DNA from: a virus
Lineage: Duplodnaviria > Caudoviricetes
DNA length: 52,530 nucleotides
Strand: one strand, 5' to 3'
Virus record (IMG/VR): IMGVR_UViG_3300032325_000423
Coordinates: 1-52,530 of that record
Shown here: positions 8,336 to 34,800 of the stretch, in pieces
Position numbering within the stretch: position 1 is the first letter of the stretch
Layout of the letters: each line of letters starts with the position of its first letter
The notes under the pieces: model-generated
Told to the model about the DNA's origin: nothing
Seen by the model: only the letters and a program-made list of their open reading frames with translations
The model's database searches: none
Translations under genes and position numbers: made by a program

Positions 8336-8737
8336 TTACATCACCAACCTACGACCACTAAGTGCTTTAATAGTCGCCTTGGTACCAGGAACCAGATCAT
8401 ACCTTGTCGATTCCTTTAGGCTCACCCAAACATAACTATCATGCTCCCAGTTAAGAGATACAACAGGATTACTCAGAGAGATATGAAAAATAATCTTACT
8501 ATATTCTGAGCAGTACCTAATAGTAAGAGAAAACAACTCTTTGTTATCAGGAATAATGATATTAGTTTCTTCGGCCAATTCTCTAGATGCACATTCAATT
8601 AAACTCTCATTATCTTCTAATCTTCCTCCAGGCAAACAATATCGGCCGGGCATCCACGGAGCAGTAGGGCCACGTTCTAAGATGAGTATTTTTTTATCTT
8701 GATTAATAACAGCAACAGTAGCAGATTTTTGACCCAT
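8336..8737 (-). CDS. NUDIX hydrolase
   Basis: Nudix box GGRLEDNESLIECASRELAEET. Confidence 0.9.
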   Translation of the reverse strand: MGQKSATVAVINQDKKILILERGPTAPWMPGRYCLPGGRLEDNESLIECASRELAEETNIIIPDNKELFSLTIRYCSEYSKIIFHISLSNPVVSLNWEHDSYVWVSLKESTRYDLVPGTKATIKALSGRRLVM

Positions 8738-9854: not shown

Positions 9855-10805
9855 TTAGAGTGCCTGAGCGAACTGCATGGCCTTTTCCAAAGCCTTGGCG
9901 TTGTCGTTCGCGTTCAGTCCGAACCACAGGCTGTCGAGCCGATTATCTTCGGTGCGACCCTTGTTGTAATTCAGATACTCGTTGTAGCCGTTGTACGCGG
10001 CCCACCACGTTCCGCGAACACCCGTTGCACTCTGCTTCGGGCCTTCGACCAGAGTCAGAATCTCGTCCATGATGTTTCTGGTACGAGTCTTGATCTGATC
10101 ATCCGGTGTACCGTCGATGTCGAGCATCACCTTGACATAGCGACGAACGTCGGCCTGATTGAAGTTCTTCGACGCGAGGAACTTGAACTGTTCCGCAGTC
10201 GCCTCAAACTCCATATTAATGTTGTCCATAATGTCTCGCACGTTTTCCAGATTGGTCTTGCTGGAGCGTGTGTGACGAATACGAATCAACTTGGAACCAC
10301 TGCCCTTGCTATGAGCCATCGCCATAGTGTTGGCACACACAACGCGGATCGGCGTATAGCCAACCCGGATAGCGGTCGTGCCATCGTGCGAGTTGCTGAG
10401 AAGAATAAACTTCCCAACCTCGTCACCCTTCACGATCTCGCTATTGTCGCGGTTCAGTTGGGCCAGAACCCAAACCTTCTGACCGCTGTGGAGCGAACCG
10501 GCAGTATGCAACGCACACTCGCCAGCGTCCAGAAACGGCTGGAACCAATCGAACGCTTCGCTGTTTTGCAGCGGAGTGTATCGCGGGCCGACAACGCCCA
10601 GAATACTATCGTCGGTCTTGCGATAGGTCGCACGGGCCGGAACAGGCTGGCCGTCCACCGTGACCAGATCCTTCAAGCCAACTTCCCAATCCAGACCGGC
10701 AGCGGTCATCGCTTCCGAAACCGTGGGAGCTTCGTCAAGCTGGTTCCCAAGGCCGTGCCACGGGGTCGCACCAACAAACATCATCTGTTCAACTGCATGA
10801 GCCAT
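9855..10805 (-). CDS. DUF932 / TIGR03299-type phage/plasmid protein
   Basis: N-terminus MAHAVEQMMFVGATPWHGLG, LLSNSHDGT and TPIRVVCANT motifs; AAAGGGA RBS; start reassigned downstream of promoter. Confidence 0.88.
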   Translation of the reverse strand: MAHAVEQMMFVGATPWHGLGNQLDEAPTVSEAMTAAGLDWEVGLKDLVTVDGQPVPARATYRKTDDSILGVVGPRYTPLQNSEAFDWFQPFLDAGECALHTAGSLHSGQKVWVLAQLNRDNSEIVKGDEVGKFILLSNSHDGTTAIRVGYTPIRVVCANTMAMAHSKGSGSKLIRIRHTRSSKTNLENVRDIMDNINMEFEATAEQFKFLASKNFNQADVRRYVKVMLDIDGTPDDQIKTRTRNIMDEILTLVEGPKQSATGVRGTWWAAYNGYNEYLNYNKGRTEDNRLDSLWFGLNANDNAKALEKAMQFAQAL

Positions 10806-10849
10806 AATCATCCCTTTCGTGTTGCTGTTCAATCGTTCTTCGTTCACTG

Positions 10850-12767: not shown

Positions 12768-12848
12768 GTCTCGCAACTCAAACATCAGCCTCCGATTAGC
12801 AATCATACACTCATTATCGGCAGTTGTCAAGAACAAACTTTAGAAAAT

Positions 12849-12930
12849 TCTAAGTCGTTATGCAGCAAGCACTTACGTCGAACGCGGCCCGCCGGATTTG
12901 TTCTAAGTCTTTATATACCAACAACTTAGT
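12849..12930. repeat. 82-bp element A, copy 3
   Basis: 29+24+29 architecture, inside tRNA cluster. Confidence 0.9.
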
Positions 12931-13011: not shown

Positions 13012-13014
13012 GAG

Positions 13015-13101
13015 CGGAAGAAGTAGGATTCGAACCCACGGAAGTTTTTACGCTTCTTCTGATTAGTAATCAGATGCATTAGACCACTCTGCCATTCTTC
13101 C
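13015..13101 (-). tRNA. tRNA-Ser(ACT)
   Basis: GGAAGAA acceptor, G discriminator, long variable arm, TCTGA-TT-ACT-AA-TCAGA. Confidence 0.85.
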
Positions 13102-16713: not shown

Positions 16714-17088
16714 TCATGAGAGAAAACCCTCACAACCCAAGGTGGTCAGATCACGAAGCAAAGCCTCTGCCGCTTCCGGCGTTTTCAGAGTCATGCTCTG
16801 TTTGGCCCCGGACTTGGCAGGAACGAACTTGTCGTAATGCCAGCCTCCAACCAGATAATCACTCCAATCCTTGGCCTCTTTGAGACCCCATCCGGTGTGC
16901 TGTCGAATAGCCTTGATTGCATGAATACGATTGTCCAGAGTCAAACCTCCAGTGATCGTTACCATACGACGCTGGTTCACACCCAGTGCCACCTCCAACG
17001 CACACACAATCTTTTCAAACATATCCAGATTGCAACCATTCGACACCATGTTCAAAGCTTCGCGAACGCTCATCTCAACCTTAATCAT
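16714..17088 (-). CDS. ribosomal protein bL12 (L7/L12) C-terminal domain-containing protein
   Basis: RIHAIKAIRQHTGWGLKEAKD and AEALLRDLTTLG match bL12 CTD pattern; GGAGG RBS. Confidence 0.75.
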   Translation of the reverse strand: MIKVEMSVREALNMVSNGCNLDMFEKIVCALEVALGVNQRRMVTITGGLTLDNRIHAIKAIRQHTGWGLKEAKDWSDYLVGGWHYDKFVPAKSGAKQSMTLKTPEAAEALLRDLTTLGCEGFLS

Positions 17089-17498
17089 TCTCTTTCCTCC
17101 AAAATGTAGACTTGTCGATCTTGTGTTATCAGCGTGGCATACTGGGAATCGTCCCAAGCAAATTCGCCACAATCACTTTCCCTACGCCACTGTGGGTCAC
17201 GAATGGGATTATAGTACAGCTTTTCAAGATTGTCAATACCAATCTCATTATTTATTTGAACCTCTTCACACTTTACCCACCCACTAACATCCTTCTTGCC
17301 AGCCTTATGAACCTTCTTAGCTTTTTTCAGGTTGTTGACCAGCTTACACCCAATCATCACCAACTGATAATGGCCCGGATTGTAGTAATATTCATCGACC
17401 TTTTTCCTTCCTTGCATCACCTTAATCTGCCAATGTCGAAAATGCTCACCCTTACCCAGATGAAATCGCACTTCAGCATGGAGTTTAACAGCTTTCAT
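17085..17498 (-). CDS. conserved phage hypothetical protein
   Basis: ORF track; VRFHLGKGEHFRHWQIK. Confidence 0.7.
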   Translation of the reverse strand: MKAVKLHAEVRFHLGKGEHFRHWQIKVMQGRKKVDEYYYNPGHYQLVMIGCKLVNNLKKAKKVHKAGKKDVSGWVKCEEVQINNEIGIDNLEKLYYNPIRDPQWRRESDCGEFAWDDSQYATLITQDRQVYILEERE

Positions 17499-18562: not shown

Positions 18563-18790
18563 TCATACCCAACCCTCCGGCATAGAAATTTCATTCAGTC
18601 CCATATGATACTTAACCTCAGACTTTTCAAACGGTTCCCACTGAAGTATACCATCATCATACTCACCATGAGTCCATTCACCCCATTCTTTATTGTCAAT
18701 ATCCCAACAGAGCATTATTGGTCTATTATATCCAACAGCAGCACACAGATAATATCCCGGAGTAATTGGCTCATTAGCATTCCACTTCAT
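18563..18790 (-). CDS. hypothetical protein
   Basis: ORF track. Confidence 0.6.
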   Translation of the reverse strand: MKWNANEPITPGYYLCAAVGYNRPIMLCWDIDNKEWGEWTHGEYDDGILQWEPFEKSEVKYHMGLNEISMPEGWV

Positions 18791-19015
18791 GCTCTATATC
18801 CTTCTTGTTATCTCTTCGTACTCATTAATCAAATCAGTCACCGTTATACCATACTTCTCTGCTAAAGTCAATGCGTCTTTTTTAGCAGGACTCCTGATCA
18901 TCATTGGGTTTTTAAGAACCCTAAGAACATAAACTATTGCTGCATTTCTGTCTGATTCTTCTTTATTCATCTCTTCTCCTTTGTATTGTATACCGGGTGT
19001 TAATGGATCGACTTA

Positions 19016-19088
19016 TCGGAGCGACGGGATTTGAACCCGCAACACCGCCACATATAGTGTGGAACTCTACCTATTGAGTTACGCCCGA
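19016..19088 (-). ncRNA. pseudo-tRNA / tRNA-like RNA
   Basis: D-arm ACTC/GAGT, T-arm GCGGG-TTCAAAT-CCCGT; irregular anticodon loop (CCACA-CTATA-TGTGG) and imperfect acceptor. Confidence 0.65.
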
Positions 19089-19089
19089 C

Positions 19090-19657
19090 GATAGTTTTAC
19101 AAATAATGTCCGGTATCACGCATTACTCAACCACAGACCGTCATTTGGTGGTTTCTATCCGACCCCTGTTTGTAACCAGCGTAACATTAACGATCCGTTA
19201 CTATAACCCACCAATACCCCGATATTCTTAGCCCTTGGAGCAAGGTTAAAACTGGTGGAAACCGCCCACGCTGCTTTGCCGCTTTCGGGTACCTAATATC
19301 AGGCGGCTAGTCAGAGGTGACGATTACTGGTTGTATTGTATCATGCGTTTGTGTAGCGTTGCAACGTCTAGGCTATTCGCCATACACAATAAAGAATTTC
19401 TCCACCGCATGATTGTATGAATCGTGGTGAGGACGCGATCCCCCATAGATTGGTACTACTATCCAACGTACAGCCCCGTTGGCAACACTACGCTGCATTG
19501 CAGCCGCTCAGTGTTTATCGTAATAGGCTATCCCAAATCTAGTCCAAGGCATGGACCCACGAGTTTTGTATTGTAAAACAGATAGGGTTGAGCCATACTC
19601 GACAGCCATTTAACCGTGGCTACTTTGATATCATTCTGCCAGCGGCCCTTATCTGCT
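19090..19657 (-). ncRNA. putative structured ncRNA or ncRNA array
   Basis: No ORF >=60 aa, own promoter at 19667-19695, many nested stems, TACAATACAA linkers. Confidence 0.55.
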
Positions 19658-19666
19658 TATGTGCTA

Positions 19667-19695
19667 AGTATACATCTATTATCGTCACTTGTCAA
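19667..19695 (-). promoter_or_regulatory. sigma70-type promoter driving ncRNA region
   Basis: TTGACA-agtgacgataatagatg-TATACT. Confidence 0.75.
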
Positions 19696-19734
19696 GAGGC
19701 TTCTGTAGGAATTCCAAAAATTTTTTAGCATTGA

Positions 19735-19816
19735 CGTAACCCTATGATACACAAGCACTTACGTTAAAGTCGGCCGGCCCGCCTTACCCTAAGTTCTTTA
19801 AGGATAAGGACTTACG
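19735..19816. repeat. 82-bp element A, copy 8
   Basis: 29+24+29 architecture. Confidence 0.9.
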
Positions 19817-19817
19817 A

Positions 19818-19997
19818 CTAGTAATCTTCGGCCTCAATAGGTTCATCAGCATAGTAGTTGGAGTTGGTCAACACTTCCGGCCTATATTTACTCAACTTTT
19901 TATCCAGACAATCCAAACAAACCCTACCCAGTGGAATGCCCCTAGCATCACTTTCCCACCAGCTTTTCTTGCCAGACCCACATGGACAAACTCTCAT
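19818..19997 (-). CDS. small Cys-rich (CPCGSGK) protein
   Basis: Manual translation MRVCPCGSGKKSWWESDARGIPLGRVCLDC...; AAGGAG RBS. Confidence 0.7.
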   Translation of the reverse strand: MRVCPCGSGKKSWWESDARGIPLGRVCLDCLDKKLSKYRPEVLTNSNYYADEPIEAEDY

Positions 19998-20006
19998 GAT
20001 ATCTCC

Positions 20007-29159: not shown

Positions 29160-30095
29160 TTACTTTTCTCCTTTTTTAAGATTGATCCACCAGTTTATAG
29201 TATCGACAAGCCCATCATGAAACTTTACATTAGGCTCCCAGCCCAAGATATTTCTTGCTTTTGTAGTATCTAATAGTCTGCGAGGCTGTCCATTAGGCAT
29301 GGAACTATCCCAAACTATCTCTCCTTTAAAATTGCAAATCTCTTTAATCATTTCGGCCAATCCCCTTATTGTTATCTCTTTTGAAGATCCTAGGTTGACA
29401 TTATCAGCATCAGAACATTTATCTATAGCCAACACAATCGCCCTCGCTGCATCATCAACATGAAGAAACTCTCTAGTAGCACTACCATCTCCCCAACAAG
29501 ATACTTCTTTTAAATTACTGTCCACAGCATCCACGAACTTTTTAATTAAAGCCGGAATCACATGACTAGATTTTTCGTCAAAATTATCATTAGGACCATA
29601 TAAATTACAAGGTAATAGTACTATACTTTTAAAATTATATTGACTATAGTATGCTTTCAACATAACCCCCAGAGCCTTCTTAGCTACTCCATAAGGAGCA
29701 TTAGTCTCTTCTGGAAAACCCTCCCATATATCATCTTCTAGAAAAGGAACTCTACAATACTTAGGATAAGAACACACTGTCCCCACCTGCACAAACTTTT
29801 CTACATTATTTCTTCTACTATGCTCTATAACATTCATACCCATCATCATATTATCATAAAAATATTCTCCAGGGTATTTTCTATTAGCCCCTATCCCACC
29901 AACCACAGCAGCTAAATGTATTACAATATCCGGATTTACTTCTTGAAATAATACTTTGGTATCATAATTTTTAGTTAGATCATAATCCATGCTACGAGGA
30001 ATAAAGATATCCTTCTCTTCATACCCAGAACTTATTAGATAGTTTAAAACTCTACTACCTAAGAATCCGCTTCCTCCAGTTAATAATATTCTCAT
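29160..30095 (-). CDS. fcl: GDP-L-fucose synthase
   Basis: TGGSGFLG, HLAAVVGGIGAN, YGVAK, NLYGPNDNF, SHVIPALI, WGDGSATREFLHVDD. Confidence 0.95.
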   Translation of the reverse strand: MRILLTGGSGFLGSRVLNYLISSGYEEKDIFIPRSMDYDLTKNYDTKVLFQEVNPDIVIHLAAVVGGIGANRKYPGEYFYDNMMMGMNVIEHSRRNNVEKFVQVGTVCSYPKYCRVPFLEDDIWEGFPEETNAPYGVAKKALGVMLKAYYSQYNFKSIVLLPCNLYGPNDNFDEKSSHVIPALIKKFVDAVDSNLKEVSCWGDGSATREFLHVDDAARAIVLAIDKCSDADNVNLGSSKEITIRGLAEMIKEICNFKGEIVWDSSMPNGQPRRLLDTTKARNILGWEPNVKFHDGLVDTINWWINLKKGEK

Positions 30096-30099
30096 ATAT

Positions 30100-31911
30100 T
30101 TACTCCACAGTTACGCTTTTGGCTAAATTTCTAGGTTTGTCCACATCACATCCTTTAGATAGAGCAACATAATATGCTAGCAACTGCAAAGGAATTACAG
30201 ATAAGATAGGACTCAAGATATCTATAGAACTTTTCATATCTATATGATAACAAGATTCATTATTACTATTTGCCCCAACACTAATAACATTAGCGCCCCT
30301 AGACTTTATTTCTTGAATATTGCTGATCATTTTGCTACTCTGACTCTGATTATTTAAAAGAGCCACCACCACACTATCCTCATCTATTAAAGCTATCGGA
30401 CCATGTTTCATTTCTCCAGCAGCATATCCTTCAGCATGAATATAGGATATTTCTTTTAGTTTAAGAGCCCCCTCTAAAGCTATTGGATAACAAACTCCCC
30501 TTCCCAAATACAAGCAATTATTCTTAGAAGAGATATACTCTGCTATATTCTTAATATTGTCATGATCTTTATTTAAAAAACTATTCATATCACTAGGGAG
30601 ACTTAATAATTGATTTATTACATCTATTCTATTGTTATTTTTATAAGGCAAATTTTGTTCTATCCACAAAGCTAAAAGCAATATTGATATTACCTGATTC
30701 GTAAATGCTTTTGTACTAGCAACCCCAATTTCTCTACCAGCTCTGATATGTATACCACAATCTGTGAGTCTGGCAATAGAAGAATTAACAATATTTGTTA
30801 CTCCTACTATCATAGCCCCTTTATTTTTTGCTTCCTCTAATGCACTAATAGTATCCGCAGTTTCTCCCGACTGAGATATTCCTATAACAATGTCTCTATT
30901 TTTAATTGAGTTGTTATTTCTATATCTAAATTCACTAGCATGTTCCACACTAGTTTTAATACCACATAATTCTTCTATAAAATACTTACCCAGTATACCA
31001 GCATGATAACTAGAACCACACGCCACAATAGTAATATGATTAGCATTAGCAAAAACATTCTCATATCCTAGAAAACCACCCAGCTTTATCTTTCCTTCAG
31101 ATATTCTGCCCCTTAAGCACATATCTATGCAACTAGGCTGTTCATATATCTCTTTCAGCATAAAGTGGTCAAAACCTTCTTTATCTGTATAACCCTCTTC
31201 AAGTCCAACATCCTCTATCTTGTATGACAATTCTGACCAATCATGAAAATTCATAAACTTATCAATACCATTAGTCAGATCACATATGCTACTATCAGGA
31301 ACATATATAATCTTGTCACAATATTCAGATATGGCTAAACTATCACTTCCCAAGTACAAACCATCCTTATCATATCCTATAACCATAGGACTTCCTTTTC
31401 TGGCACATATCATTTGACCATTTTCCGCCAGTATCACTATAGCAAAAGCCCCATCAACCAAAGAGCAACTTTCTCTAACAGCCAGCAATAGATTTTGACT
31501 TTGTTCATATTTTTCGTATATTAAATAGAGCAAAACCTCACTATCTGTATCACCCTTGATCTTGTCTTTATATTTTAAATTTTCCTTTATACTCTTATAA
31601 TTCTCAATAATACCATTATGAACCAGACTCAAACTATTGTCCCAAAGAACCAAAGGATGACAATTTTCAAAACTAGGTTTTCCATGGGTGGCCCATCTGG
31701 TATGAGCAACTCCGCTCAACCCTGTTAGATTTGGTGATACAAAGTGTTCTAATTCGCTAACTTTGCCAACGCTCTTGATAGTTTGTAGGCCATCGCTGTT
31801 TAAGATAGTTAATCCTGCACTATCATATCCGCGATACTCTAATTTGTGTAATCCATTAAGCAAAAAAGGCAAGCAATTATGCCTGCCTTTATAAGCTACT
31901 ATTCCGCACAT
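30100..31911 (-). CDS. glmS: glutamine-fructose-6-phosphate aminotransferase
   Basis: MCGIV, LEYRGYDSAG, HTRWATHG, SQSGETADT, C-terminal PRNLAKSVTVE. Confidence 0.97.
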   Translation of the reverse strand: MCGIVAYKGRHNCLPFLLNGLHKLEYRGYDSAGLTILNSDGLQTIKSVGKVSELEHFVSPNLTGLSGVAHTRWATHGKPSFENCHPLVLWDNSLSLVHNGIIENYKSIKENLKYKDKIKGDTDSEVLLYLIYEKYEQSQNLLLAVRESCSLVDGAFAIVILAENGQMICARKGSPMVIGYDKDGLYLGSDSLAISEYCDKIIYVPDSSICDLTNGIDKFMNFHDWSELSYKIEDVGLEEGYTDKEGFDHFMLKEIYEQPSCIDMCLRGRISEGKIKLGGFLGYENVFANANHITIVACGSSYHAGILGKYFIEELCGIKTSVEHASEFRYRNNNSIKNRDIVIGISQSGETADTISALEEAKNKGAMIVGVTNIVNSSIARLTDCGIHIRAGREIGVASTKAFTNQVISILLLALWIEQNLPYKNNNRIDVINQLLSLPSDMNSFLNKDHDNIKNIAEYISSKNNCLYLGRGVCYPIALEGALKLKEISYIHAEGYAAGEMKHGPIALIDEDSVVVALLNNQSQSSKMISNIQEIKSRGANVISVGANSNNESCYHIDMKSSIDILSPILSVIPLQLLAYYVALSKGCDVDKPRNLAKSVTVE

Positions 31912-31929
31912 AGTAAGTTGATCCTATTT

Positions 31930-32160
31930 TCAAGCAACAGCTTCATTGTTCTTATTGTCCACAATTGGCTTAACCTTCTTGGGACGACCACGCTCCTTCT
32001 TGATTGTTAGCTTGCGGCGCTGTCTGCGGATCATAGCGGTAGTAATATTTTGACTAGTCATTTGACTAAGCTTTACAGCTAGTTGCTCGTCCGACAGCAA
32101 TCCGTGGTTGTTCTTGATAAAGTCTGTTTCCGAAATTGTCCACTTTTTGTAAGTTGCCAT
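31930..32160 (-). CDS. small HTH-like DNA-binding protein with AT-hook
   Basis: W...E..FI......SDEQLA..L pattern and RGRPKK. Confidence 0.6.
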   Translation of the reverse strand: MATYKKWTISETDFIKNNHGLLSDEQLAVKLSQMTSQNITTAMIRRQRRKLTIKKERGRPKKVKPIVDNKNNEAVA

Positions 32161-32240
32161 TTTTATCTCCTGAGATTGACTAGTATTGATACAAATCTAC
32201 TATATACTAGAAGTTGGTAATTTAAGTGCAAGGAGACATT

Positions 32241-32390
32241 ATGAATAATATTGACCTAATTAATTCAATTTTAGAAGTAAAGGCATCTGGATCCCTTGAT
32301 ATCGAACAAGACCTATTACTACCAGAAGGAAAGAGCATAGCAGAACTATTACATGACCAAGAAAAAAACGAATCAAAAAAAGAAAATTAA
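32241..32390 (+). CDS. small hypothetical protein
   Basis: AAGGAG RBS; MNNIDLINSILEVKAS... 49 aa (manual). Confidence 0.55.
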   Translation: MNNIDLINSILEVKASGSLDIEQDLLLPEGKSIAELLHDQEKNESKKEN

Positions 32391-33003
32391 TCCAGAATTA
32401 CCAAATGGTGTTTCAGAAGAAGATTTTTTAAGAGTATTAGATAATATAAGCAAAAGACTCGGACATAAATTCCGATTTGGTTATCACGACTTCGACGACA
32501 TGAAACAACAAGCGGCTATTTTTGCCATAGAGGGTTTAGAAAAATACGATAATAGTCGTCCACTAGAAAACTTTCTATGGACACACGTTAGAAATCGTCT
32601 ATTTAATTACAAACGAAATAATTACCAAAGACCAGATAAGCCATGTTTGACTTGTCCATTTTTTGATAAGCATTTTAAGTGTTCTTTAAATCAGTGCGAA
32701 AAATTTACAGACAAAAGTGAATGTGAATTATATGTTGCATGGTCCAACAGAAACGAAAGTAAGAAGAATATTATGCAACCTCATCAAATAGAAGATGAAT
32801 CTTCGCTTGGTTCTTATAATAGAAATTTTGTAGACTCTATTTCAGACAAAGAACTAATAGTTTTTCTAGATCAAAACATAGAAAGCGAATACAGAGAAGA
32901 TTATTTGAGACTCAAGCACGGAGAGAAGGTCACTAAGAACAAACTTCAAAAATTACAGAATCACGTTTTACAACTTATAGAACAATATAAGAATTCCAAA
33001 TGA
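32353..33003 (+). CDS. phage RNA polymerase sigma-factor-like protein
   Basis: Region-2-like DDMKQQAAIFAIEGLEKYD..RPLENFLWTHVRNRLFN, followed by Cys cluster. Confidence 0.7.
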   Translation: MTKKKTNQKKKINPELPNGVSEEDFLRVLDNISKRLGHKFRFGYHDFDDMKQQAAIFAIEGLEKYDNSRPLENFLWTHVRNRLFNYKRNNYQRPDKPCLTCPFFDKHFKCSLNQCEKFTDKSECELYVAWSNRNESKKNIMQPHQIEDESSLGSYNRNFVDSISDKELIVFLDQNIESEYREDYLRLKHGEKVTKNKLQKLQNHVLQLIEQYKNSK

Positions 33004-33818
33004 GTAACATACCAAAAAAACGCGGACAACTAAGTTTAGATGAAGAAAAGTTCATAAGAGACAATATAGATTCTATGTCTATTGGAAATATTGCGGATGC
33101 TATAAACAGAAATGTTGCACCAGTAGAAAGATACGTTAATGAAAACAAGCTACTCAATAGTACGTCTAAAGCAGACTATGATCTTTTAAAAAGGAAATTA
33201 CATAGCAAAACCTTTTGGCCAGAAATCATAAAGCAGTTCGATATAGAAACGGGCGAATTGAGTTACTTTGAAGATACGTGGATAGGACTAGTAAAACAAT
33301 TTAGAGAAGACGTACTACCAGCAGAAGAACTTCAAATCAAACAGTTTATCACGATAGATATTCTCATTAATAGAAGCATGAAAGATCGTAAAAGACATAT
33401 TGCAGAAACGGAAAAACTACAGAATATAGTAGATAAGGAATATGAAAAGCCAGAGGACCAAAGAGATATTCCCAAGCTAACGAGCATGGAAACACAATTA
33501 AGTTTCGCTCGTAACAGTATTGCTAATTATACTAATGAATATACAAAATTATTAAACGAGCAACAAAAGATTAGCAAAGATCTTAAAGCTACTCGTGAAC
33601 AAAGAATCAAAAGAATTGAAGACGGGAAAAGTAGTTGGACAGGATTAATACGAATGCTAGAAGACGAAGAATTAAGAGAACGCGAAGGAAGAGAGATGGA
33701 GATTTTATCCATGAGCGCTAATAAAGCAATGTCTCAGATGAAAGAGTATCACAAGTATCAGGACGGAGTTATAGACAGACCTTTTCTTACCCCAGAAAGT
33801 GTAGAAGACAATGAATAA
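33000..33818 (+). CDS. hypothetical HTH/coiled-coil protein (possible terminase small subunit)
   Basis: N-terminal HTH-like segment, coiled coil, position upstream of terL. Confidence 0.5.
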   Translation: MSNIPKKRGQLSLDEEKFIRDNIDSMSIGNIADAINRNVAPVERYVNENKLLNSTSKADYDLLKRKLHSKTFWPEIIKQFDIETGELSYFEDTWIGLVKQFREDVLPAEELQIKQFITIDILINRSMKDRKRHIAETEKLQNIVDKEYEKPEDQRDIPKLTSMETQLSFARNSIANYTNEYTKLLNEQQKISKDLKATREQRIKRIEDGKSSWTGLIRMLEDEELREREGREMEILSMSANKAMSQMKEYHKYQDGVIDRPFLTPESVEDNE

Positions 33819-34800
33819 AACTGCTATTATAACAGGAATAACTGGACAAGACGGTTCTTATCTGGCGGAGCTTCTCTTAAAAAAAGACTACAGAGTTATA
33901 GGATTATATAGACGTAGCAGTACAAATAGTTTCTCCAGAATTAATAGCGGGGTCTTGTCAGATACTAATTTAGTTTTGGAAGAGTTTGATTTGACTGATC
34001 CTAGTGATTGCTCTGCTATAATAGAAACATATCAGCCAGATGAGGTATATAATTTAGCGGCTCAAAGCCACGTTGCAACAAGCTTTAAGCAACCTACAAC
34101 AACAGTTGAAATAGATACCATAGGCGTTTTGAATTTATTAGAAGCTATAAGGGCACGTTGTCCGAAGAGTCGTTTTTATCAGGCTAGTACCAGTGAGATG
34201 TTTGGTTCCAATTATATAGAGGATACGGACCTAGGAAAATATCAAAACGAAGAAACGCCATTTGTTCCACAAAGTCCATATGCTATAGCAAAACTTGCAT
34301 CACACCATATGGTTAGAATCTATCGAGATGCATATAAATTATATGCTTGCTCTGGTATATTATTCAATCATGAAAGTCCAAGAAGAGGCGAAAATTTTGT
34401 TACTCGTAAAATTACTAAATACATTGGAGAACTAGTTAATCAACAAATAGATGGAAATAAACACAAACTAAGACTAGGTAATTTGGATGCTACTAGAGAC
34501 TGGGGACATGCGAGAGATTATGTATACGGGATGTATCTAATGTTACAACAAAATTCTCCAAAGGATTATGTATTAGCTACTGGAGAATCTCATACTGTCA
34601 GAGAGTTTTTAGAAATAGCATTTAAGCATGTTAACTTAAACTATCAAGATTATGTTGTTGTAGATCCAGAATTTTATAGACCTTGCGAGGTTCCTTATTT
34701 AAGAGGAGATGCTTCTTTAGCTAAAAAAGAATTGGGCTGGATTAATAGAGTTTCTTTTGAAGAATTAGTATCAGAAATGGTACAGCAAGATGTAAGGTAG
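33811..34800 (+). CDS. gmd: GDP-mannose 4,6-dehydratase
   Basis: ITGITGQDGSYLAE, NLAAQSHV, FYQASTSEMFG, SPYAIAK, FNHESPRRGENFVTRK. Confidence 0.97.
   Translation: MNKTAIITGITGQDGSYLAELLLKKDYRVIGLYRRSSTNSFSRINSGVLSDTNLVLEEFDLTDPSDCSAIIETYQPDEVYNLAAQSHVATSFKQPTTTVEIDTIGVLNLLEAIRARCPKSRFYQASTSEMFGSNYIEDTDLGKYQNEETPFVPQSPYAIAKLASHHMVRIYRDAYKLYACSGILFNHESPRRGENFVTRKITKYIGELVNQQIDGNKHKLRLGNLDATRDWGHARDYVYGMYLMLQQNSPKDYVLATGESHTVREFLEIAFKHVNLNYQDYVVVDPEFYRPCEVPYLRGDASLAKKELGWINRVSFEELVSEMVQQDVR

Follow-up and report, generated by a model that had tools for sequence, protein, structure and literature searches.

A promoter-led array of five uncatalogued structured RNA modules, one with an exchangeable tRNA-like domain, in uncultured freshwater giant phages

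Results

Genomic setting and transcription unit

The window, by which the whole 52.5-kb stretch of DNA under analysis is meant, is a piece of an uncultured virus record with an estimated completeness of 36%. The minus strand of its positions 1-32 kb forms an early-type region that carries many small open reading frames, mostly without a Pfam family, and ten tRNA genes. Here, a sigma-70-type early promoter (TTGACA-17-TATACT; 19667..19695, minus strand) opens the array described below; it agrees with the consensus at 11 of 12 positions, is 100% identical upstream of the array in relatives, and had already been recognized in a sequence-only reading of this DNA. The same reading had found the following ~650 nt devoid of ORFs of 60 amino acids or more; the ORF-free length is ~700 nt, and none overlaps positions 19000-19700; the longest ORFs over the stretch reach 50 aa (19424..19576, plus strand) and 46 aa. 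No terminator-like site was found on the minus strand between the promoter and the next gene (18794..18970, minus strand), the first protein gene of the transcription unit, which encodes 58 aa without a Pfam family and comes after the array in most close relatives. Its AGGAG stands at 18980-18976 and its ATG at 18970; the last linker of the array runs directly into the AGGAG. The 30 nt of the array promoter recur with 90% identity at 24876-24846, before a small protein gene.

Upstream of the promoter, the cassette is bordered by a repeated intergenic element (19701..19817, minus strand) that lies outside the RNAs. Elements of this type are ~100 nt long, have palindromic arms, stand just 5' of strong early promoters, and match many other places in the relatives' loci in both orientations; a similar element with a promoter also occurs at 12928-12768 and at about 22740-22570 of the window. 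The gap between the tRNA-Trp and tRNA-Tyr genes (12768-12928) was considered as a further RNA module and rejected, being a copy of this element plus promoter. The tRNA cluster includes a tRNA-Ser at 13014-13101 with the anticodon ACT (ARAGORN), and the same cluster position in relatives carries ACT or GCT. A 152-aa ORF at 16717-17172 weakly matches the C-terminal domain of ribosomal protein L7/L12 over a short span (25 residues, E 9.9e-6); a glmS-type aminotransferase gene and two sugar-nucleotide epimerase/dehydratase genes occupy 29160-34800; and a DUF932 gene at 9855-10847 lies inside an island of 54% G+C amid surroundings of 33-46%, which suggests its recent acquisition.

Forty-three loci were collected through the neighbouring 59-aa and 75-aa proteins, and 18 of them contain parts of the RNA stretch; pattern scans with conserved cores turned up 38 viral stretches and one MAG contig for module A and 28 viral stretches for module B. 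Only parts of the contigs were fetched, and a module recorded without another therefore means that the other is not in the fetched part. A nucleotide search of a phage collection with the RNA stretch gave no match. The relatives are phage contigs of 200-244 kb, with terminal repeats in four of the five complete relatives that were searched for Ro60, and the DNA runs that contain parts of the RNA stretch are labelled freshwater or plain metagenome; the source clade is one of uncultured freshwater giant phages.

Structured modules A, B, C, and G

Comparison with the relatives shows a stretch composed of five independent predicted RNA modules (A, B, C, G, and F), and not of a run of dead tRNAs. 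Module A (19576..19660, minus strand; exact core in 38 viral stretches) is predicted to form a three-way-junction RNA of ~80 nt with a closing stem at 19655-19579 and a 17-nt loop, unchanged in all copies aligned, that contains the palindrome GAUAUC. Its core is nearly invariant in 27 aligned copies although their flanks diverge, and such a core yields no covariation signal. Backing for the proposed fold comes from two divergent copies with both helices rewritten: in locus L085, the conserved inner helix CCGCUGGC/GCCACGG has become GAUAGCC/GGCUAUC on both strands and the closing stem has likewise been replaced on both strands, and the copy in locus L070 carries a third version of the closing stem. 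Of the unit originally proposed at 19579-19655, the closing stem is present and kept by compensatory changes in relatives, whereas the suggested inner pairing AGCCA/TGGCT is lost in the commoner variant. Module A adjoins a canonical tRNA in 7 of 26 loci scanned, at a distance of 3-8 nt, standing before tRNA-Lys in five and after tRNA-Leu in two; in L070 its closing stem ends 3 nt 5' of tRNA-Lys, and in L068 a promoter and tRNA-Leu come first, with module A following after 8 nt. In a further locus, a 99-nt element that scores 35 bits as a tRNA, too long for a plain tRNA, lies ~5 nt after module A (L043:1782-1880). Local alignment of the five modules with the E. coli rrn operon was no better than with shuffled sequences, which speaks against rRNA mimicry; a resemblance of A to the L11-binding region of 23S rRNA found no support in this alignment.

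Module B (19418..19565, minus strand; ~145 nt) was aligned from 31 distinct copies and is predicted to fold into a cloverleaf-like four-way junction (P1, P2, P3, P7) of closing stem, two hairpins, and a long arm, which branches again (P4-P6) into a further three-way junction with a variable hairpin. Across these copies, 95.5% of the cells are paired and 22 of 48 pairs are compensatory, with both sides changed; none of 500 shuffles was as good, and slid controls pair at 37-46%. The closing stem of the unit first delimited at 19422-19562 and its inner helices CCAACG/CGTTGG, AACACT/AGTGTT, and GTCCA/TGGAC are all present, with compensatory changes in relatives. With the covariance model of B, each of four complete phage genomes yielded a single copy, as did the MAG, whose only hit lies on a 20.9-kb contig that resembles phage DNA; the 120 other genomes of that MAG's family that were searched gave none. 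In the more distant locus L090, B begins ~10 nt after a promoter of its own (TTGACA-17-TATATT); the helix-closed, ORF-poor ~130 nt directly after this stand-alone B (L090:4830-4960) match no module of the window.

Module C (19341..19413, minus strand) is a candidate Y-shaped RNA of ~73 nt, present in only 3 of 47 contigs compared. Its five aligned copies are 100% paired, with 9 of 21 pairs compensatory and none of 500 shuffles as good; the closing stem and the helix TTGTGTA/TACACAA, both already named for a unit at 19340-19413, are kept by compensatory changes. Module G (19172..19330, minus strand; ~155 nt) consists of a variable 5' part (19330-19273), the hairpin of which is changed on both sides in L034, and a core (19272-19172) that is conserved in 17 copies. 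In these, 96.7% of the core is paired, 5 of 18 pairs are compensatory, and none of 500 shuffles reached the covariation score; the changes include CCACCA/UGGUGG versus CCACUA/UAGUGG and four forms of a five-pair hairpin. Of the two helices that had been read from the sequence in this region, GCCGC/GCGGC is borne out by its replacement with ACTGC/GCAGT in one relative. The proposed pairing of TTGGTGG with a downstream CCACCAA is unsupported, since this CCACCAA sits in a hairpin that relatives replace; TTGGTGG pairs instead with an upstream CCACCAG, and this helix covaries. The G core of L004 and L034 has a linker and AGGAG immediately behind it. Covariation strongly supports the predicted folds of B, C, and part of G.

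Module F and its tRNA-like head

Module F (18993..19165, minus strand) is a composite candidate RNA of ~170 nt, defined by alignments of 11 and 12 copies. Its three parts are a 5' scaffold (19165-19088), a tRNA-like domain (19016..19087, minus strand), and a 3' tail (19015-18993); scaffold and tail do not vary among 12 copies, except for one hairpin of the scaffold that can be replaced. In the scaffold, two helices are predicted, GGGUCG/CGAUCC, which would close the whole unit, and GAUAG/CUAUC; a possible further pairing in the model joins the hairpin loop UACCGG with the last six bases of F, CCGGUA. These pairings never vary, give no covariation signal, and are predictions only.

The tRNA-like domain scores 36.8 bits against the Rfam tRNA model RF00005 (cut-off 29), as compared to 33.9-37.8 bits in relatives; ARAGORN made no call on 19016-19087. 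Its D arm and T arm are canonical, and the anticodon arm CCACA/UGUGG carries a 5-nt loop (CUAUA); 19016-19087 has no 7-nt anticodon loop with U33 and an anticodon on a five-pair stem. Across relatives, the head takes four forms, three of them without a normal anticodon loop: the 5-nt loop of the window, a GAGA tetraloop on a 7-pair stem, a minimal form with acceptor stem, one hairpin, and T arm, and, in L087, a lengthened stem with a loop of 7 nt. Covariation is seen in the acceptor and T stems; the G3:U70 alanine identity pair occurs in some head variants and is absent from the head in the window. The domain is not bounded by its acceptor ends in the manner of a free-standing tRNA gene; an invariant scaffold and tail flank it, and RNA contigs run across both of its ends. 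By crossing its 5' edge, these contigs provide no support for an RNase P cut there. The comparison of copies shows the tRNA look-alike as an integral, exchangeable domain of the predicted RNA F and not as a decayed tRNA gene. The earlier notion of a pseudo-tRNA at 19016-19088 that ends the chain was correct in its tRNA shape and broken anticodon, but not in treating it as a separate terminal RNA; it is an internal domain of the larger F, and this is the chief change to the earlier reading.

Linkers between the modules

The 10-mer UACAAUACAA occurs in three exact copies in the 52.5-kb window, all of them inside the array and on the minus strand: between A and B (19566..19575), between C and G (19331..19340), and after F, where it is joined with the ribosome-binding site of the next gene (18981..18990). 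A shorter linker with the TACAA-type motif, GUUACAAAC, marks the border between G and F (19166..19174, minus strand), and a partial linker, UACAAU at 19417-19412, overlaps the 5' edge of module C. With one mismatch allowed, the 10-mer occurs 11 times versus 6.2 expected, which is not significant (6 of 100 shuffles reach 11). The 5-mer TACAA, on the other hand, occurs 8 times in 730 nt versus 0.89 expected, a ~9-fold enrichment that none of 2000 shuffles reached; its density is 10.96 per kb in the array against 1.22 per kb window-wide on the same strand. All eight copies of the array stand at borders between folded units, in agreement with the original suggestion that linkers separate such units.

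Other roles for this motif fared poorly. A role of the linker as a general context of ribosome-binding sites was rejected: only three ACAA-SD-start matches were found on the minus strand, and two of these are this one site. As a phage promoter, with TACAAT resembling a -10 box, one site fits (TTGCAA-18-TGnTACAAT at 19364-19335); the other linkers have no -35 element, and the motif is absent elsewhere in the window. The linker is unlike the sequence preference of RNase E, which counts against processing at the linkers.

Mosaic arrangement, coding, and folding

Relatives match the stretch in pieces, with separate matches of differing identity for the promoter and for each unit, and units are missing, duplicated, or displaced. 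Of the 47 contigs compared, 21 have A and B side by side, 5 have A ahead of B with other DNA between them, and 9 have B 0.9-1.9 kb upstream of A; 2 of the 47 carry B in duplicate. Six fetched stretches contain B without A, and six A without B; the G core was found with or without F. All modules lie on one strand in every one of these contigs, and the exact module order of the window recurs in none of them. The gaps between modules in relatives contain further recurring segments that are not assigned to any module.

The variable columns of the alignments lack a 3-nt period (39, 39, and 37 columns in the three phases for module B), almost no internal gap in the module alignments has a length divisible by three, and ORFs are not retained from one copy to another. 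Codon-type conservation of short ORFs, named at the outset as a finding that would speak against structured RNAs, was not found among the copies, whereas covariation among homologs, proposed as the check, appears as compensatory pairs in B, C, the G core, the variants of A, and the tRNA-like stems. The proposed comparison of folding energies with shuffled sequences gave a divided result: B and C fall below -2 (z-scores of -2.11 and -2.82), and A reaches -1.17, but G (+0.09), F (-0.43), and the region as a whole (-0.24 and -0.42 in two runs) fold no better than shuffles. The support for structured RNAs comes from covariation, not from thermodynamic stability.

Matches to catalogued RNAs

In Rfam, only 19016-19087 matches, as tRNA; otherwise, the single hit to 18700-20000 at E up to 10 is a chance-level plastid hit. 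The opinion that the stretch cannot be assigned to tmRNA, RNase P, or another catalogued class holds, as Rfam matches nothing of the stretch beyond the tRNA-like part; specifically, no tmRNA was detected in the stretch by ARAGORN or the Rfam model, hammerhead, twister, twister-sister, pistol, hatchet, and HDV-like ribozymes do not match it at E up to 10, and skipping-rope (RF02924), DUF2693-FD (RF02926), and salivarius-1 (RF03030) are not among its matches at E up to 10.

Metatranscriptome contigs

The RNA data are assembled metatranscriptome contigs from relatives with a depth of 2-5, which cannot establish ends, strand, or level and may include carried-over DNA. Four runs from three studies yielded one contig each, of 160-164 nt, that covers F at 19132-18993 and runs on upstream for ~10-23 nt; in three of the four runs this extension matches the replaceable hairpin of a relative, and for the fourth only 10 further upstream letters are shown. 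Three of the F contigs end at 18993 or 18994, immediately ahead of the last linker, and in one of the three adapter remains are found at this point; the contigs begin ~10 nt inside F and not at its predicted first base. In one run, fragments of B end at 19424, near the 3' closing strand of B; in another, a fragment of G spans 19314-19177 with adapter remains at both ends, and 19177 is near the 3' closing strand of G. The contigs thus hint weakly at RNAs of module size with ends next to linkers, and processing at the linkers is hinted at only by such ends of low-depth contigs. The lack of contigs over other parts of the stretch is given no weight.

Discussion

A polycistronic array of small RNAs and its alternatives

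The stretch is probably a polycistronic operon whose five small structured RNA genes are unrelated and evolve independently, and its transcript would be cut at the linkers into stable RNAs. The comparison of copies shows that each module keeps a fold of its own and that the modules are separate genetic units. Of the two architectures offered by the sequence-only reading, the polycistronic small-RNA array agrees with the single promoter, the lack of a terminator-like site, the self-folding and covarying units, their independent shuffling, and RNA contigs of roughly unit size. In the proposed sequence of events, transcription from a host-type early promoter would pass through the modules and then a few small protein genes; the RNA would be cut within or beside the single-stranded, C/A-rich UACAA linkers, and the pieces would be trimmed back to the closing helix of each module to yield stable RNAs of ~75-170 nt. 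tRNAs and the stable RNAs of phages T4 and T5 are released from precursors, and they serve as the model for this processing. The short linkers may also supply the homology for module swaps between related phages. As a guess, host machinery could be a target of the RNAs, acting in trans at an early stage of infection, and the tRNA-shaped head of F could be a handle for an enzyme or particle that recognizes the tRNA elbow, or a shield against exonucleases. A more far-reaching version would view the array as the RNA counterpart of an anti-defence island, in which F as a chassis with swappable tRNA-shaped heads that offer no anticodon loop for cleavage or decoding, the cloverleaf-like B, and other modules would act as decoys or inhibitors of host tRNA-handling machinery or of tRNA-targeting defence nucleases, and the linkers would double as processing sites and recombination joints; it is speculative, and we consider it unlikely. 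The decoys or antitoxin mimics suggested by the sequence-only reading are likewise speculation.

The modules could instead remain on the mRNA of the downstream small genes as a structured 5' leader that acts in cis, by 5'-end protection or tuning of translation. This reading, to which we assign a modest share of the probability, draws on the uninterrupted path from the array to the 58-aa gene, with no terminator in between, on the position of this gene behind the array in most close relatives with the last linker running into its AGGAG, and on L004 and L034, where the G core stands directly before linker and AGGAG. However, in other relatives A is found inside tRNA operons, and B has a promoter of its own with no gene directly behind it; modules are gained and lost without a change in the downstream gene, and the RNA contigs of three studies stop before the linker and do not continue into the gene. 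That several ORFs of 30-50 aa overlap the stretch might recommend it as a set of small protein genes; the missing 3-nt periodicity, the frame-shifting indels, and the lack of ORF conservation among copies leave this with a negligible probability. The other architecture in the sequence-only reading was one large non-coding RNA; an ornate RNA of this sort, needing all of its domains and possibly forming a multimer, would suit a phage-borne stretch of ~670 nt near tRNA genes, as known for GOLLD and ROOL (PMC12286853), and the 6-nt palindrome in the invariant loop of A could mediate dimerization. Rfam yields neither GOLLD nor ROOL with E relaxed to 10, the modules are not predicted to pair with one another over long range, and the folding of the stretch as a whole does not surpass that of shuffles; the modules occur singly, in other orders, and kilobases apart across the 47 contigs. 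Since no two modules are obligate partners, a single large RNA is unsupported, and we regard it as very improbable.

The module borders invite two further explanations. If the modules were selfish insertions, that is, small mobile elements or remains of tRNA genes at a duplicated TACAA target, their inverted repeats could mimic closing stems; TACAA-type direct repeats flank every module, and doubled repeats are seen where a module of the window is absent in a relative, for example C in L013. Yet internal multi-branch helices are kept by compensatory changes and loops are conserved, which implies selection on a transcript and not on transposase ends; all copies share one orientation, B is single-copy in complete genomes, and a tRNA match is confined to F, so that this origin appears improbable. 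There is likewise a slim chance that an undescribed class of self-cleaving ribozymes is represented by one or several modules and makes the cuts at the linkers. The core of A is almost invariant, as in catalytic RNAs, RNA contigs end beside linkers, and Pistol occurs in the same early, tRNA-rich region of L005, L046, and L047 among the 26 loci scanned; against this, searches up to E 10 give no ribozyme family for the stretch, the position of a cut cannot be derived, and host RNases explain the same ends. The Pistol copies themselves (51-56 bits, cut-off 34.5; L005:7808-7870, L046:3618-3680, L047:5102-5164) lie ~180-200 nt upstream of tRNA-Arg(tct) in these three relatives, and none scores above threshold in the window.

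Comparison with known systems

The array of separately evolving small RNAs invites comparison with several known RNAs. YrlA, a bacterial Y RNA, has a tRNA-like domain with D and T arms and without a decoding loop, set in an end-paired scaffold (PMC4201824); module F resembles it in its ~100-170 nt and in a tRNA-like domain within a scaffold predicted to be closed by end pairing. YrlA is defined by a Ro60 partner gene and a GNCGAA motif (PMC4201824). Ro60/TROVE (PF05731) was found in none of five complete relative genomes, with control genomes responding and the window itself being a 36%-complete fragment; no GNCGAA motif was seen in the sequence of F, and the Rfam Y RNA model gives no match at E up to 10. 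GOLLD (RF01998) and ROOL (RF03087) are non-coding RNAs of phages and prophages with elaborate, covarying folds, often near tRNA islands (PMC12286853); they are single large RNAs of fixed architecture, whereas the stretch in the window comprises five modules that are separable in 47 contigs, do not share one co-linear architecture, and have no match to these families in Rfam. A survey of IMG/VR from 2023 arrived at 8,495 predicted structured RNA candidates with lengths of 29-151 nt (PMC10690425), and some of the modules may already be among these candidates without a name; a literature search of partial coverage found no description of these modules.

The closest parallels are the stable RNAs of T5 and T4. 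The T5 genome (AY543070) is annotated with RNAX, RNA1, RNA2, RNAI, RNAIII, RNAIV, RNA2H, and RNA3, "stable RNAs with unknown functions" of ~70-720 nt. They, too, are non-coding RNAs placed head to tail among tRNA genes and driven by early promoters, and some are annotated as tRNA-like; examples are the succession of promoter, RNAX (719 nt), and tRNA-Arg, and that of RNA1 (tRNA-like), RNAI, RNAIII, and tRNA-His. The array in the window may differ by its C/A-rich linkers and by embedding its tRNA-like part in a larger conserved scaffold, and no similarity in sequence or model was detected: searches with the B model were empty up to E 10, and the BLAST matches did not go beyond the level of T arms. 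T4 (AF158101) encodes the species 1 and species 2 RNAs (rnaC, 139 nt, and rnaD, 119 nt) directly after tRNA-Arg, a position that module A shares in some relatives, where it likewise follows a tRNA directly; again no similarity was found, and T4 has two RNAs as opposed to the shuffling set described here. Homology to the stable RNAs of T4 or T5 was rejected, as sequence and model comparisons revealed none.

The stable RNAs of T4 and T5 have been annotated for decades without a function, and this phage clade supplies many natural variants. At least five RNA families absent from Rfam are represented, several with clear covariation-supported folds, and one of them, F, combines a conserved scaffold with a tRNA-like head that is swapped between relatives; this natural variation amounts to a set of constructs for studies of processing, binding, and structure, and to material for new RNA family models. 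The array is non-coding, conserved, and led by an early promoter, and module A adjoins canonical tRNAs in 7 of 26 loci. By analogy, it is of the same kind as the stable RNAs in the tRNA operons of T4 and T5, and not a homologous family; the array of five uncatalogued structured small RNAs is real, its processing at the linkers is likely, and it joins a kind of phage RNA that is known but unexplained.
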